Shown here piece after piece: positions 2 through 5,658 of a stretch of 44,613 nt of DNA. Source of the stretch: Escherichia phage YD-2008.s; the sequence record NC_027383.1; one strand, 5' to 3'. A model generated the notes under the pieces. It saw only the letters and a list, made by a program, of their open reading frames with translations. It was not told where the DNA came from and searched no databases. Numbering within the stretch: position 1 is the first letter of the stretch; every line of letters begins with the position of its first letter. The translations under genes and the position numbers were made by a program.

Positions 2-523
2 AACGTTCGCCCGGATGGTAAGAAAGCGCTCAAGATAGTCCGCACGAAGGCGAAGCATGACCCAACCTTCGACGAGGAGCGCGACGACCCGAACGCGGCG
101 GGGTGGTGGCTTAAAATTGAGTTGCCGTCGGGGCGCATCATGAGTTATCCGGGCATCGCGCTGTCTGTCACGACCGAGATCGACGAAGACACCGGCAAGA
201 AGCGCACCAGCACCCGCATTAAATACCAGGGCGAGAATCAGACGACGCGTCAATGGGGGTTCCAGTACACCTACGGCGGCAAACTGACAGAGAACATCGT
301 GCAGGCGCTGTGTCGCGATATCCTCGCATGGTCCATGCCGGGTGTTGAAGCTGCTGGATATGAGATCGTACTGTCCGTACACGATGAACTGATCACCGAA
401 GTGCCGGATACTGACGACTACACGACCGAGGAGCTTTGCGCGCTGATGTGCGACCTGCCTATTTGGGCGAAAGGCTTCCCACTTGCCGCGGAAGGCGATT
501 GTATGTATCGATACAGGAAGTAA
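2..523 (+). CDS. DNA polymerase, family A (Pol I/T7-like), C-terminal fragment; 5' part lies at 42859..44613
   Basis: Frame open from base 2 with no start upstream; translation contains ...YEIVLSVHDELITEVPD... consistent with family A motif C; stop TAA 521-523. Confidence 0.7.
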   Translation, partial: NVRPDGKKALKIVRTKAKHDPTFDEERDDPNAAGWWLKIELPSGRIMSYPGIALSVTTEIDEDTGKKRTSTRIKYQGENQTTRQWGFQYTYGGKLTENIVQALCRDILAWSMPGVEAAGYEIVLSVHDELITEVPDTDDYTTEELCALMCDLPIWAKGFPLAAEGDCMYRYRK

Positions 524-527
524 GATT

Positions 528-719
528 ATGAAAGCAGAAATGAGCATTATGCGCGCTGGCGCGGCGGAAAACGACGAGATTCGAATCGTCATTAGACTGG
601 AACGTGGCAAGACCATTACGGCACTTGTCACGCCTGAAAACCTGGCGCTGGCGCTAACCGGGCGATCGGATATACCGGTAGACCTTCGTCTGCGTAACGT
701 GGAATTGCAAACTAAATGA
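528..719 (+). CDS. hypothetical small protein (63 aa)
   Basis: Track ORF 483..719 trimmed to ATG 528, which is preceded by AGGAAG; stop overlaps next gene start. Confidence 0.4.
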   Translation: MKAEMSIMRAGAAENDEIRIVIRLERGKTITALVTPENLALALTGRSDIPVDLRLRNVELQTK

Positions 720-994
720 CACCCGAGGGCAAGATTCAAAGTCACCTTATGAAGCTGGTGAAAGCCGTCGGCGGATTCTGCCGCAAAGTGGCCTGGGAGG
801 GGCGCGCAGGTGCGCCCGATCTGATTATCATCATCAACGGCAAGATAGTTTTCGTCGAAGTGAAGCGCCCTGGCGGCAAACCGAAGCCGCACCAGGTACG
901 AGAACATGAGCGAATGGCCCGCCGCGGTGCGGACGTTCGCGTCATCGACAACATAGCCGACTGTGATTTATTGGTTGCTGAATTGGTCGCGTAG
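716..994 (+). CDS. VRR-NUC-like nuclease (PD-(D/E)xK fold), putative
   Basis: 92 aa; ...GAPDLIIIINGKIVFVEVKRPGG... gives a D-x(n)-E-x-K signature; overlaps upstream stop (operon coupling). Confidence 0.55.
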   Translation: MTPEGKIQSHLMKLVKAVGGFCRKVAWEGRAGAPDLIIIINGKIVFVEVKRPGGKPKPHQVREHERMARRGADVRVIDNIADCDLLVAELVA

Positions 995-1288: not shown

Positions 1289-2713
1289 ATGGCAAGATTC
1301 CGACGTCGCGAATATCAGAAGTTGATAACCGCGTTCATCCTCAAGCATAAGCGATGTAATATCTGGGCGACAATGGGGTCTGGTAAAACTGGCGCAACCA
1401 TGTGGGCGCTGAATAAAATGTTCCAGACCGGCATCCTGTCCAACCAGGAGGACCGCGTACTGGTGCTGGCCCCTCTGCGCGTTGCATCCGGCACATGGCC
1501 CCCGGAACAGGAAAAATGGCGTTTCCCCGCCCTGCTGGTAGTAGACGGCACCGGGTCAGAGAAGGACCGCATCGCTGCGCTTGAGAGTGACGCTAACGTG
1601 GTTTGTATTAACTATGATGTAGTTGAGTGGCTCGTCGAGTATTGCGGCGACGAATGGCCCTTCACGGTAGTTGTTGCCGATGAATCCACTAAGCTGAAAG
1701 GCTATCGAAGCAAGCAGGGAAGTAAGCGCGCCCGTGCGCTGGCGGCGATCGCACATAAGCACGTCAAGCGCTGGATTAACCTGACCGGCACACCCGCACC
1801 AAACGGGCTGAAAGACCTATGGGGTCAGACGTGGTTTGTCGACGGTGGCGAACGCCTCGGTAGTAGCTATAAGGCATTCACGGATCGCTGGTTTATTAGC
1901 AAGCCTGTTAAGCCTGGCAGCTTTACTATGCAGCACGCCCCGCTTAAGAACTCCGAGAAAGAAATCCAACAACGCCTGTCCGACGTGTCGTTAACAGTTG
2001 ACGCGGCTGAATACTTCGGGTGTGACAAGCCAATCTATACGCCGGTTGTAGTGGACCTGCCGAAGAAAGCCCGCAAGATTTATGACCAGTTCGAAGCGGA
2101 GCTATTTGCGGAACTGGAAAGCGGAACTGTGGAGGCGGCGAACGCTGCGTCGAAGACTATTAAGTGCCTTCAGCTTGCTTCGGGGGCCGTGTATAAAGTC
2201 GACGAAGACGGCGAGCGCACCGACGAATGGGTGAAAATTCACGACGCTAAACTGGACGCTCTGGAAAGTATCGTGGAGGAGTTGAACGGCGCACCGTTGC
2301 TCGTCGCGTACCAGTACAAGCATGACCTGGCGCGTCTCAAGAAGAAATTTCCGCACGGCGTTGCGTTGGGCAAGGGTAAGCAGGGCAATAAGGATATGGA
2401 AGCGTGGAACAGAGGCGAGATCCCCATCATGTTTGCGCACCCGGCATCGGCGGGCCACGGCCTTAACCTGCAGGACGGCGGACACCACCTTGCTATCTTC
2501 TCAGACACCTGGAACTTTGAGCACTTTTCACAGATCGTCGAACGTATTGGGCCTGTTCGCCAGATGCAAGCCGGACACCCTCGTCCGGTATTCGTCTACA
2601 TTATCCAGGCGCGTGGCACACTGGATGAACTGGTCGCGGAGCGTCGCGACAGTAAGCGAAACATTCAGGACGATTTAATGGAATACATGAAAGCTAAAAA
2701 GGCGCGCAAATGA
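1289..2713 (+). CDS. SNF2/DEAD-like superfamily 2 DNA helicase
   Basis: 474 aa; Walker A MGSGKTG, DExx box VVADESTKL, C-terminal helicase motif AHPASAGHGLNLQ. Confidence 0.8.
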   Translation: MARFRRREYQKLITAFILKHKRCNIWATMGSGKTGATMWALNKMFQTGILSNQEDRVLVLAPLRVASGTWPPEQEKWRFPALLVVDGTGSEKDRIAALESDANVVCINYDVVEWLVEYCGDEWPFTVVVADESTKLKGYRSKQGSKRARALAAIAHKHVKRWINLTGTPAPNGLKDLWGQTWFVDGGERLGSSYKAFTDRWFISKPVKPGSFTMQHAPLKNSEKEIQQRLSDVSLTVDAAEYFGCDKPIYTPVVVDLPKKARKIYDQFEAELFAELESGTVEAANAASKTIKCLQLASGAVYKVDEDGERTDEWVKIHDAKLDALESIVEELNGAPLLVAYQYKHDLARLKKKFPHGVALGKGKQGNKDMEAWNRGEIPIMFAHPASAGHGLNLQDGGHHLAIFSDTWNFEHFSQIVERIGPVRQMQAGHPRPVFVYIIQARGTLDELVAERRDSKRNIQDDLMEYMKAKKARK

Positions 2714-3405
2714 TTATCTGGTCATTGTTTGACGGCAGCGGCTTGATGATTGAGCGTGCTGCCGAGATGGGGCATAAGTGTTATTGCTTCAACTACTCCG
2801 AAGCCGATCACGGGTCGTACCTTGATTACCGGATTTATGGTCGCGGGATCCGATATCGCAATGAGTTTATTGATCTGGACTTCGTGGACCGCGCGATGAA
2901 TGGTGATTTCGGCACGCCGGATATCATCTATGCATTCCCGCCGTGTACGGATCTGGCGGTGAGTGGCGCGCCAGCTTTCCCGCGCAAACGCGCCCGCGAC
3001 CCTGCCTTCCAGCTTAAGGCGGTGCGCACCGCGAAGATTGCAGCTTACCTGGGTGATTTCTTCGAAGTGCCATATATGATTGAGAATCCGCGCAGCGTGC
3101 TTTCTACCCAATGGCGTAAGCCAGACCACTCGTTTGACCCGTGGGAGTATGGCGGCTATTTGCCGGAGGATGACGTGCACCCGCTCTTCCCGGAATACAT
3201 CAACGCCCGCGATTCATATCCGAAGCTGACCTGCTTATGGACCGGCAACGGCTTCCGTATGCCAGAGAAAAAGCCGGTATTCGTTGAAAAAGGGTACTCG
3301 AAGCAGTATAGTCGCCTCGGAGGCAAATCAGCCCGCACCAAATTAATCAGGTCGCCCACCCCGCGCGGCTTCGCAATCGCAGTCAATGAGGAAAATTTAG
3401 AATGA
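2710..3405 (+). CDS. DNA (cytosine-5)-methyltransferase, compact form
   Basis: 231 aa; motif I LFDGSG, catalytic Pro-Cys motif FPPCTDLAVSG, ENV-like IENP; ATGA overlap with helicase stop. Confidence 0.65.
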   Translation: MIIWSLFDGSGLMIERAAEMGHKCYCFNYSEADHGSYLDYRIYGRGIRYRNEFIDLDFVDRAMNGDFGTPDIIYAFPPCTDLAVSGAPAFPRKRARDPAFQLKAVRTAKIAAYLGDFFEVPYMIENPRSVLSTQWRKPDHSFDPWEYGGYLPEDDVHPLFPEYINARDSYPKLTCLWTGNGFRMPEKKPVFVEKGYSKQYSRLGGKSARTKLIRSPTPRGFAIAVNEENLE

Positions 3406-3725
3406 ACACTACATTCGAAGCCATCGACTTTTCAGTGGCAATGACCAATCAGCTTTTTTCCTACGACAGCAAAACAGGCGTTATCCGCCTAAAGTCCACC
3501 GGCTGCAAGATTGGCAACCTCAATACCGCCGATGGCGGTACTCGTATCGAATGCAACGGCAAGACGCTGTCTGGCGCACGCGTGGCGTGGATTATTGAGA
3601 CTGGCAATACAATCCCTCCAGGCTATGCCGTAGTGTGCCGTCAACGCACGCCAGGCCATTACGGCAACCGCATTAGTAACCTGTATCTGGTAGACGTTGC
3701 ACGCGACCCAAATTTTTATTCGTAA
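3402..3725 (+). CDS. hypothetical protein, HNH-endonuclease-like layout (possibly degenerate)
   Basis: 107 aa; ...NGKTLSGARVAWIIETG...PPGYAVVCRQ...GHYGNRISNLYLV resembles HNH_3-type nucleases but the usual catalytic His positions are substituted; ATGA overlap with upstream stop. Confidence 0.35.
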   Translation: MNTTFEAIDFSVAMTNQLFSYDSKTGVIRLKSTGCKIGNLNTADGGTRIECNGKTLSGARVAWIIETGNTIPPGYAVVCRQRTPGHYGNRISNLYLVDVARDPNFYS

Positions 3726-4049: not shown

Positions 4050-4514
4050 ATGAAAATTTTACAAGAAGAAAAAGATTACTGGGCCGCGCAATGCCTCGAA
4101 GCCCGCGAACAGGCCGAACGTGCGAACGCGCTGGCAGATACCTACCTGTCAAGCTATGAAACGGAAGAAAAGCGTCGCATGGAGTTAGAGGAGCGCTTCG
4201 AACTGCTTTTCGAACTGATGGGGATTATGCAGCGCACCGGATACACCACCAGCGTTGCACTAAACCGCGTCACGGCGGATGCGTTGCGGGAGCACTGTAA
4301 ACGTGCGGAGGAGTACGTGCGACCGAAGGGCCGCCAGTCTAAGGTTGACCGGAAAGACCTTGTGCTTATGGCGTGGCGCAACCCTACAAACGGCAGCTTC
4401 TACCCGGACGCGCGCCCGCTTAGTGCTGAGGAGTCAAAGCGCGTGCAACGCATTCTCAAAACCGGCAATAAAATCGCCCTGTATGCGATAGATCCAGACC
4501 ATGCAGAAGAGTGA
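4050..4514 (+). CDS. hypothetical protein (154 aa)
   Basis: ORF tightly packed in the plus-strand early operon; charged, helix-rich N-terminal half. Confidence 0.5.
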   Translation: MKILQEEKDYWAAQCLEAREQAERANALADTYLSSYETEEKRRMELEERFELLFELMGIMQRTGYTTSVALNRVTADALREHCKRAEEYVRPKGRQSKVDRKDLVLMAWRNPTNGSFYPDARPLSAEESKRVQRILKTGNKIALYAIDPDHAEE

Positions 4515-4986
4515 GCAAAAAGATAGCTGGCGCACGCCGCCAGCTTTATTTAAACCGCTGCGCCGGAAGTACAGATTCCGTTATGACATGGCGGCGAGCG
4601 ATGCCAACCACCTGCTACCGCGTTACTTCACGGCGGAGCACAGCGCGCTCGATGCGGACTGGTCAGAGTTGAAAGGGTGGAAGTGGTGCAACCCGCCGTA
4701 TTCCGATCCGCTGCCGTGGGTCGAGTGCGCGGCGCATGGACGTCGGACCGTCATGCTACTGAATCAGGACACGTCGACGAAGTGGGCTAAGCTGGCCCGG
4801 AAGACTGCAAACCTGATAATTCTTCTGGACTGGCGGATCCGATTCATACATGCAGTCACCGGTGAAGTCGGGCCGAGCAATAACAAGTGCCAGCAATTGA
4901 TAATCTTTGACGAAGCGCCACCCAGCGGCAGCGCACGAATTGAAATAATGAGCGAAGGAGAACTCCTTGAATATCTTAGTCGTTGA
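4501..4986 (+). CDS. DNA N6-adenine methyltransferase, phage Dam-like family
   Basis: 161 aa; catalytic NPPY motif (WCNPPYSD); overlaps neighbours. Confidence 0.7.
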   Translation: MQKSEQKDSWRTPPALFKPLRRKYRFRYDMAASDANHLLPRYFTAEHSALDADWSELKGWKWCNPPYSDPLPWVECAAHGRRTVMLLNQDTSTKWAKLARKTANLIILLDWRIRFIHAVTGEVGPSNNKCQQLIIFDEAPPSGSARIEIMSEGELLEYLSR

Positions 4987-5191
4987 TCGCAGTCCGCGAG
5001 TCGTGGACGAAATTGTTAAACGCTACCAAATTAATCCGAGGGAGAACAAAGTGCGGCGGGTCAGCCGCCCGGAGCAATTGCTCGGCCTGGACCTTACCGG
5101 TTGGCTTGTAATGACGGCCCGCTGCCATCTTGTGTGTGACACGTTTTCTGCCCGTATTGTTCGTGAAAATTTGATTGAGGAATTGAAATGA
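4967..5191 (+). CDS. hypothetical protein (74 aa)
   Basis: ORF overlapping both neighbours in the early operon. Confidence 0.4.
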   Translation: MNILVVDRSPRVVDEIVKRYQINPRENKVRRVSRPEQLLGLDLTGWLVMTARCHLVCDTFSARIVRENLIEELK

Positions 5192-5658
5192 AATTACTGA
5201 TTTGCGATTTGGATGGAGTTATTAACGGTTCAAGCGATGCGCGCGCTGACCTGGTGCCGGGTATAAAAACTAAATCCACCTTTTGGGCGAAGTGGCACAA
5301 AGCGCACGTCCGCGAAGACCTGAACATGGATATGCTGCCGCTACTGCGCATGTATAAAGAGCAAGGCTTCGAGATCGCGTATCTGACCAACCGGCAGCGA
5401 GAATGTTGGGACACCACCGCCGAGCAATTGGAGGTCTTCCCGGTAGGCCGGTTGTTTATGCGCCACATGCTGGACGACACCCCGCCGCCTGAGTTTAAAG
5501 CGTGCGCCGTGTTCAAAATGGTATGCTACGCGGACGTGTCGGAACTTGTCATCATTGAAGATTGCGAGAAGAACATCGCGGCAATTCGTCGGGCGTGTGG
5601 TGATTTGGTCCCGAAAATTTACGCAATAAACGTTGCAAAATTCACTTGCAACCAATAG
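5188..5658 (+). CDS. HAD-superfamily phosphatase/nucleotidase-like protein
   Basis: 156 aa; N-terminal DxDGV motif (LICDLDGVINGS) typical of HAD motif I. Confidence 0.55.
   Translation: MKLLICDLDGVINGSSDARADLVPGIKTKSTFWAKWHKAHVREDLNMDMLPLLRMYKEQGFEIAYLTNRQRECWDTTAEQLEVFPVGRLFMRHMLDDTPPPEFKACAVFKMVCYADVSELVIIEDCEKNIAAIRRACGDLVPKIYAINVAKFTCNQ

Follow-up and report, generated by a model that had tools for sequence, protein, structure and literature searches.

The characterized homologue of the gene described here is dcm of the Drexlerviridae phage K42 (KarlJaspers-like). In a study of retron Ec86/Eco1, all four escaper mutants of K42 disrupted, or potentially disrupted, this 711-bp gene (Wang et al., bioRxiv 10.1101/2023.08.16.553469). 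From an AlphaFold model of the protein superposed on DNMT3A, catalysis was assigned to C82 and substrate binding to E128, K175 and K176, and expression of K42 dcm, but not of a quadruple mutant with K175 and K176 among its changed residues, raised the level of 5-methylcytosine (5mC) in multicopy single-stranded DNA (msDNA) as measured by LC-MS (mass spectrometry coupled to liquid chromatography) (bioRxiv 10.1101/2023.08.16.553469). In the same study, mutation of either C of the msDNA CCTGG abolished Ec86 defense against K42, and dcm+ MG1655 carrying an empty vector had low msDNA 5mC and did not trigger the retron. In addition, 34 of 35 Ec86-sensitive phages (Drexlerviridae, Siphoviridae and Demerecviridae) encoded such a Dcm, which was framed as a liability (bioRxiv 10.1101/2023.08.16.553469). 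Here, we analyzed a gene of Escherichia phage YD-2008.s, a Dhillonvirus, in a stretch of 44,613 nucleotides (sequence record NC_027383.1; hereafter the window), which a preliminary description made from the sequence had taken for a compact cytosine methyltransferase (MTase). Our results indicate with good confidence that it is the DNA cytosine-C5 methyltransferase (C5-MTase) gene of a compact phage family (PHROG 757). The gene and its N-terminal motifs are as follows.

2710..3405, + strand: compact DNA C5-MTase gene (PHROG 757 family), an open reading frame (ORF) of 231 amino acids (aa)
2728..2742 (aa 7-11), + strand: motif I, FDGSG, the S-adenosylmethionine (AdoMet)-binding loop after strand 1, recognized by hhalign alignment to canonical F-x-G-x-G-G
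2935..2952 (aa 76-81), + strand: motif IV, FPPCTD, with the predicted nucleophile Cys79 (2944-2946), aligned to canonical GFPCQ
3079..3090 (aa 124-127), + strand: motif VI, IENP, the ENV equivalent with Glu125, aligned to canonical ENV

Evidence for a compact C5-methyltransferase

Two sets of homologues were used to examine these motifs: an alignment of 37 closer sequences (A1) and a set of 69 diverse sequences down to approximately 32% identity. Among the 37 closer homologues, F7, G9, S10 and G11 of motif I were invariant. In the 69 diverse homologues, C79, G86, E125, P127, P144, Y170, K172, T174, W177 and P185 were invariant, and F76, P77 and N126 were at least 90% conserved. The MTase itself carries all family-invariant residues; only at the nearly invariant L216 does it depart from the family, with Pro instead. 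Thus, FDGSG, FPPCTD and IENP, already pointed out in the preliminary description of the 231-aa ORF, are not chance strings. Comparison with phages HH3 and jat (93.5-94% nucleotide identity) gave a synonymous divergence (dS) of about 0.3 and a nonsynonymous divergence (dN) of about 0.01, so that the dN/dS ratio of 0.03-0.04 indicates a protein-coding gene under strong purifying selection. In HH3, the start of the gene is annotated 15 nucleotides upstream of the start used in the window and in jat.

Because direct searches against Pfam, NCBIfam and the Protein Data Bank (PDB) gave nothing significant, homology to known C5-MTases was established by profile-profile and fold comparison. A canonical profile was built from eight C5-MTases (Escherichia coli Dcm and seven diverse phage enzymes), in which all classical motifs were visible. 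Comparison of the family profile with this profile by hhalign gave a probability of 90.8% (E 1.2e-6), and the alignment covered only residues 1-133 of the MTase, with motifs I, IV and VI matched. Weak matches to PF00145 were present in 25 of the 37 closer relatives and were limited to profile positions 4-94 (motifs I-IV); four relatives exceeded the gathering score of this model (22-bit cut-off). An AlphaFold2 model computed from the 37 sequences (pLDDT 89, pTM 0.89) revealed a class-I Rossmann-like AdoMet-MTase fold with a seven-stranded sheet. The top 50 Foldseek matches in PDB consisted of DNMT3A/3B, DNMT1 and 3g7u, a prophage enzyme (best E 3e-6), and in the viral structure library BFVD all matches beyond the family itself were cytosine methyltransferases. 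As for the profile search of MTase families proposed in the preliminary description, the PHROG 757 profile ("DNA methyltransferase") matched aa 1-229 with E 1.4e-81. The annotation as a C5-MTase is justified despite the silence of Pfam.

Experimental support comes from K42 by way of phage tunus, a Warwickvirus. When read from an internal ATG, its homologue gp63 is exactly 711 bp long and has Cys82 in PPC, Glu128 in ENP and Lys175-Lys176 in YFKK, that is, the length and residue numbering of K42 dcm. The annotated 774-bp start of tunus gp63 (L002 2926..3699) is probably too far upstream. The tunus protein is 52% identical to the MTase over its full length (E 9e-84), and the equivalents of K42 C82, E128, K175 and K176 in the MTase are C79, E125, K172 and L173 (offset +3). 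On this correspondence, we take 5mC formation to be experimentally validated for the family, through homology, but not for the MTase itself. The two enzymes share the family, the architecture, the Cys/Glu/Lys positions, a size of about 230-236 aa and a place in an early or replication module. On the other hand, K42 belongs to Drexlerviridae, its K176 is replaced by Leu in the MTase, and the two proteins carry different loops (NPGW in K42, GYSxQ in the MTase) in the C-terminal half.

Several observations count against this assignment. The MTase matched no Pfam or NCBIfam model (PF00145 included) even at E<=1, PDB sequence and profile searches with the MTase or family profiles returned nothing significant, and hhalign of the family against E. 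coli Dcm alone gave no significant match (E 0.37). The fold evidence comes from a predicted structure with about 15% identity to its templates. The link to K42 rests on an ORF length and four residue numbers, not on the K42 sequence itself, and the K42 mutant was quadruple, so no single residue is proven catalytic. Furthermore, when the C-terminal half alone was compared with the canonical profile by hhalign, neither motif VIII (QxRxR / PQxRER) nor motif X (GNSV/GNxV) was matched; the one match, of nine columns, joined KLIRSPTPR to RRLTPR of motif IX (E 0.05-0.09) and is not significant by itself. This match is collinear with the N-terminal alignment.

Two further explanations would deny the protein this function. 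A C5-MTase fold could act on another substrate or by another chemistry, either as an RNA m5C enzyme (Dnmt2-like) or in carboxymethyl transfer from carboxy-AdoMet (Cx-SAM), as in the enzyme of PDB 8yf3. This appears highly improbable, as the K42 homologue made 5mC on DNA in the LC-MS assay and the gene is part of a DNA replication module with a Dam-type MTase gene next to it. The best structural matches were also to DNA MTases; Z differed little from one C5-MTase subfamily to another and was not discriminating. Alternatively, the protein might be a non-catalytic DNA-binding or structural MTase remnant kept for another role. There is some precedent in the distant relatives P0222, P0227 and P0229, which have lost the catalytic Cys (PPG/PPS) and the Glu of ENP (SNP/ANP/LNP) and kept the C-terminal block; like P0220 and P0240, they are 284-453 aa long with low-complexity N-terminal extensions, and they may be inactive derivatives from genomes other than those of phages, perhaps eukaryotic ones. 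In contrast, C79, E125 and K172 are invariant in the MTase and all 69 aligned homologues, dN/dS is very low and the K42 homologue is catalytically active, which leaves a remnant hardly credible. Thus, the fold, motifs I, IV and VI, profile-profile homology and the 52%-identical homologue matching a 5mC-forming phage enzyme together favor a DNA C5-MTase, the type of enzyme first proposed.

The gene is by no means new. The 3.7-kb region around it had 90-93% DNA identity to approximately 150 Dhillonvirus genomes (HK578/SSL-2009a-like coliphages), and at least 80% of this region was covered in 148 of 159 matching records. The annotation of the MTase in these relatives is inconsistent ("C-5 cytosine-specific DNA methylase", "DNA methyltransferase" or "hypothetical protein"). 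A search of 5.8 billion proteins yielded 2,719 clusters at E<=1e-3, and an exhaustive search yielded 798 representatives at 50% identity. Nearly all of these were 210-280 aa long and matched end to end; thus, the compactness noted in the preliminary description is a trait of the whole family and not a truncation. By tblastn, the family was found in 1,509 of 50,697 phage records (about 3%), whose hosts were Escherichia (574), Klebsiella (521), Salmonella (107), as well as Shigella, Campylobacter, Vibrio and others. The gene is therefore already known, being widely annotated and having a characterized homologue, and what interest remains concerns the family as a whole (a minimal C5-MTase without motifs VIII and X, and its specificity) and the unusual L216P allele of this isolate.

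The C-terminal half and the position of target recognition

The preliminary description had seen no obvious target-recognition region. Indeed, no target-recognition domain (TRD) of canonical size is present, but the corresponding position is held by a segment of about 70 aa made of a conserved block and a 13-aa hypervariable loop, which is followed by a motif IX-like element.

3118..3279 (aa 137-190), + strand: family-specific conserved block, recognized by low column entropy, invariant residues and predicted secondary structure
3280..3318 (aa 191-203), + strand: hypervariable, indel-prone loop at the canonical TRD position, a candidate specificity element
3346..3369 (aa 213-220), + strand: motif IX-like element IRSPTPRG, containing the private Pro216 (3355-3357)

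The block (about 55 aa) contains predicted strands 6 and 7 with an insertion of about 30 aa between them, and it holds the invariant P144, Y170, K172 (3223-3225), T174, W177 and P185. The loop had the highest entropy and insertion load of the C-terminal half, and its sequence fell into classes among 155 scored homologues: GYSxQ, the class of the window, in 98, NPGW (K42/tunus type) in 21 and other sequences in 36. In the motif IX-like element, R214, S215, P218 and G220 were at least 90% conserved in the 69 homologues. ENP and RSxTPR are separated by an interval of 87 aa, compared with about 174 aa in the canonical set including Dcm, and the motif IX arginine is followed by 17 residues instead of roughly 50-60. 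The protein ends 11 residues past the RSxTPRG element, and its only motif X-like remnant is N229, which is invariant in A1.

These features set the MTase apart from the known C5-MTases. Canonical enzymes (PF00145: M.HhaI, M.HaeIII and E. coli Dcm/M.EcoRII) are 100-240 aa longer; in contrast, the MTase has no detectable motifs VIII and X, a halved interval between motifs VI and IX, and fails the Pfam model. The catalytic domain of DNMT3A/DNMT3B (PDB 6u8p, 6w89 and 4u7t) is only about 15% identical to the MTase and, unlike it, keeps motifs VIII and X in about 280 aa, forms an oligomer with regulatory domains and targets CpG.

The N-terminal 133 residues form a recognizable C5-MTase catalytic core with motifs I-VI, and the C-terminal approximately 100 residues appear to be a shortened, family-specific stand-in for motif VIII, TRD, motif IX and motif X, composed of the block around invariant K172, the variable loop at aa 191-203 and the RSxTPRG element. 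Judging from the superposition of the K42 protein on DNMT3A, K172, on or near strand 7, may substitute for motif VIII. The block would then supply the base-flipping and phosphate contacts that normally come from this motif, and the loop at aa 191-203 would be the best candidate for sequence discrimination. A bolder possibility, to which we give rather little weight, is a minimal C5-MTase architecture that dispenses with motif VIII, motif X and a canonical TRD, reads DNA via the conserved ~55-aa insertion around strands 6 and 7 and the 13-aa loop, and whose loop classes could set different targets, possibly of fewer than five bases. If so, the Dhillonvirus enzyme would be no copy of host Dcm, and wrong assumptions would have been made about how the DNA of a very common coliphage group is methylated. 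A C5-MTase of about 230 aa without motifs VIII and X would also be an attractive minimal scaffold for enzymologists; this is a curiosity of the family, not something discovered in this window.

Gene neighborhood

The MTase gene lies between a helicase and an endonuclease gene, and a second MTase gene follows in the same module.

1289..2713, + strand: SNF2-type helicase gene, upstream (Pfam SNF2-rel_dom E 2e-11; PHROG 62 E 6e-156)
3402..3725, + strand: HNH endonuclease gene, downstream (PHROG 99 E 1.2e-16)
4501..4986, + strand: Dam-type N6-adenine DNA methyltransferase gene, second MTase of the module (Pfam PF05869 E 6.1e-36; PHROG 111 E 2e-55)

The helicase stop codon overlaps the ATG of the MTase gene as ATGA (2710-2713), and the MTase stop codon overlaps the ATG of the HNH gene in the same way (3402-3405), so that the three genes are tightly packed into one operon segment. 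The beginning of the window falls within a family-A DNA polymerase gene (122..523; a weak Pfam DNA_pol_A match, C-terminal fragment), after which comes a VRR-NUC nuclease gene (716..994; PF08774, E 6.6e-6); with these genes nearby, the MTase gene can be placed in a replication/recombination module. The helicase-MTase overlap was also present in phages HH3 and jat and is thus conserved within Dhillonvirus. Hence the coupling to the helicase reported in the preliminary description is real, but specific to this genus: in a Vibrio phage, Serratia phage JS26 and Salmonella phage PVP-SE1, the MTase gene was not adjacent to a helicase gene. A general functional tie between MTase and helicase, which the ATGA overlap and certain fusion proteins might suggest, was rejected for the same reason, and we read the coupling as operon packing and not as functional partnership. 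The fusions concern two large uncultured Caudovirales proteins in BFVD, A0A6J5SE15 (1397 aa) and A0A6J5NPY6 (1126 aa), into which a compact MTase domain is fused (21-26% identity to the MTase, TM 0.64-0.66); one of them is annotated as 'Helicase/UvrB, N-terminal'.

The Dam-like enzyme noticed in the preliminary description was confirmed by its Pfam match. Phage orphan Dam enzymes (T1/T2/T4/P1, and the gene at 4501..4986) would resemble the MTase in host-like orphan methylation, early expression and full modification of fast-replicating DNA. Unlike the MTase, they perform N6-adenine chemistry with an unrelated catalytic motif set. Phage Dam has also been reported as a retron trigger.

Two other ORFs of this region deserve mention. 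The first (4050..4514, + strand, 154 aa) matched PHROG 10530, labeled 'DNA ligase' (E 3e-97), and carries the same annotation in SSL-2009a and HH3. As the ORF has no Pfam match and is much too short for the known ATP- or NAD-dependent ligases, this label looks like a propagated misannotation. The second (4967..5191, + strand, 74 aa, TTG start) is flanked by the Dam-type MTase gene and by a gene at 5188..5658 that resembles HAD-type phosphatases (Pfam Acid_phosphat_B, E 3.6e-5, under the cut-off). Its position fits the description of Ksap1, a Dhillonvirus activator of the KpAvs2 defense (PMC11564622); its tblastn matches were confined to approximately 156 records, nearly all of them from Dhillonvirus. 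Its identity to the counterpart in KarlBarth/Bas17 is 92%, and the Ksap1 of that phage has been shown to activate KpAvs2 (PMC11564622).

Target site, allele and biological role

We infer the activity of the window allele, its target site and its benefit to the phage. In the mechanism that we propose, the MTase would follow standard C5-MTase chemistry: Cys79 of PPC would attack C6 of a flipped-out cytosine, Glu125 of ENP would protonate N3, and AdoMet bound at the FDGSG loop would donate the methyl group. Expression would come from the early/replication operon, in which overlapping stop and start codons link the helicase, MTase and HNH genes. Replicating phage DNA would be methylated faster than host Dcm can manage, and would be protected from restriction enzymes blocked by that 5mC. 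The cost would be that the phage becomes detectable by methylation-sensing defenses such as retron Ec86/Eco1.

The leading candidate for the target is CCWGG, as a mimicry of host Dcm, and it is held tentatively by analogy with K42. Mutation of either C of the msDNA CCTGG abolished Ec86 defense against K42, and the strong conservation of the 55-aa block beside the loop argues for a shared recognition mode. The site is also undepleted in the genome, which is weakly consistent with protection. A serious, if somewhat less probable, alternative is an active DNA C5-MTase in which the variable loop in place of the TRD sets another, or a shorter, recognition site; the name 'Dcm-like' would then mislead as to which restriction enzymes are blocked. 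The CCWGG specificity of K42 Dcm was itself assumed from host Dcm and probed only at two C's of msDNA, and the loop of the window (GYSxQ) differs in class from that of K42 and tunus (NPGW). The halving of the interval between motifs VI and IX relative to canonical enzymes including Dcm points the same way. Moreover, tblastn with E. coli Dcm found 557 phage records, none of which was Dhillonvirus or Drexlerviridae; thus, the family is not a Dcm orthologue. Finally, the quiet retron and low msDNA 5mC in dcm+ MG1655 without the phage gene point to a phage-specific activity and suggest that it is distinct in target or potency from that of host Dcm. For these reasons (an assumed specificity, no similarity to Dcm by BLAST, different loop classes and a retron quiet in dcm+ MG1655), CCWGG is only a candidate target. 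A literature search found no determined target site for any Dhillonvirus enzyme, and a search for base-resolution methylomes of Dhillonvirus or Drexlerviridae found none.

Whatever its target, the enzyme of the window may be affected by a private substitution. Compared with the closest relative, Henu5_1 (99.1% identical), the MTase differs only by L216P and K231E, and codon 216 (3355..3357) is CCC in the window and CTC in relatives, a single change. Such an allele could be crippled or strongly hypomorphic through the motif IX-like element, in a family otherwise made of active C5-MTases. In support, Pro at this position was found in none of the 183 homologues with the motif (L in 129, A in 35, C in 7 and others in 12), and the position aligned by hhalign to a Leu invariant in the eight canonical C5-MTases (RxLTPRE). 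On the other hand, family members also have A, C, T, E or S at position 216, so that it is not strictly essential, and the AlphaFold2 model places residues 215-218 between two helices (208-214 and 219-229), where a proline is easier to accommodate; loss of function is therefore possible, but not likely. Apart from this, the ORF is intact and retains all catalytic residues, and a sequencing error is possible. Thus, an allele crippled by L216P is improbable.

Analysis of site counts in the genome revealed that neither CCWGG (148 sites, observed/expected 0.96) nor GATC (172, 0.86) was strongly avoided. GAATTC (2 versus approximately 7-9 expected) and CTAG (15 versus approximately 54) were strongly depleted, GGCC and GGWCC were mildly depleted (0.65-0.73), and CCGG and GCGC were near expectation. 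These counts are weakly compatible with methylation protection and do not discriminate between candidate targets. The preliminary description had gone further and combined both MTases into broad anti-restriction protection. This idea was not supported: in the BASEL study, Dhillonvirus phages and the related Drexlerviridae were comparatively sensitive to type I and II restriction-modification systems, and no simple link between MTase genes and restriction resistance was observed in Drexlerviridae (PMC8594841). Any protection should be limited to enzymes blocked at the specific methylated sites.

In practice, CCWGG should not be taken for granted as the target site, and the L216P allele of the window isolate may not be fully active. 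Since the family is present in about 3% of deposited phage genomes, it shapes the encounters of many therapeutic and model phages with restriction and with methylation-sensing defenses such as retron Ec86.

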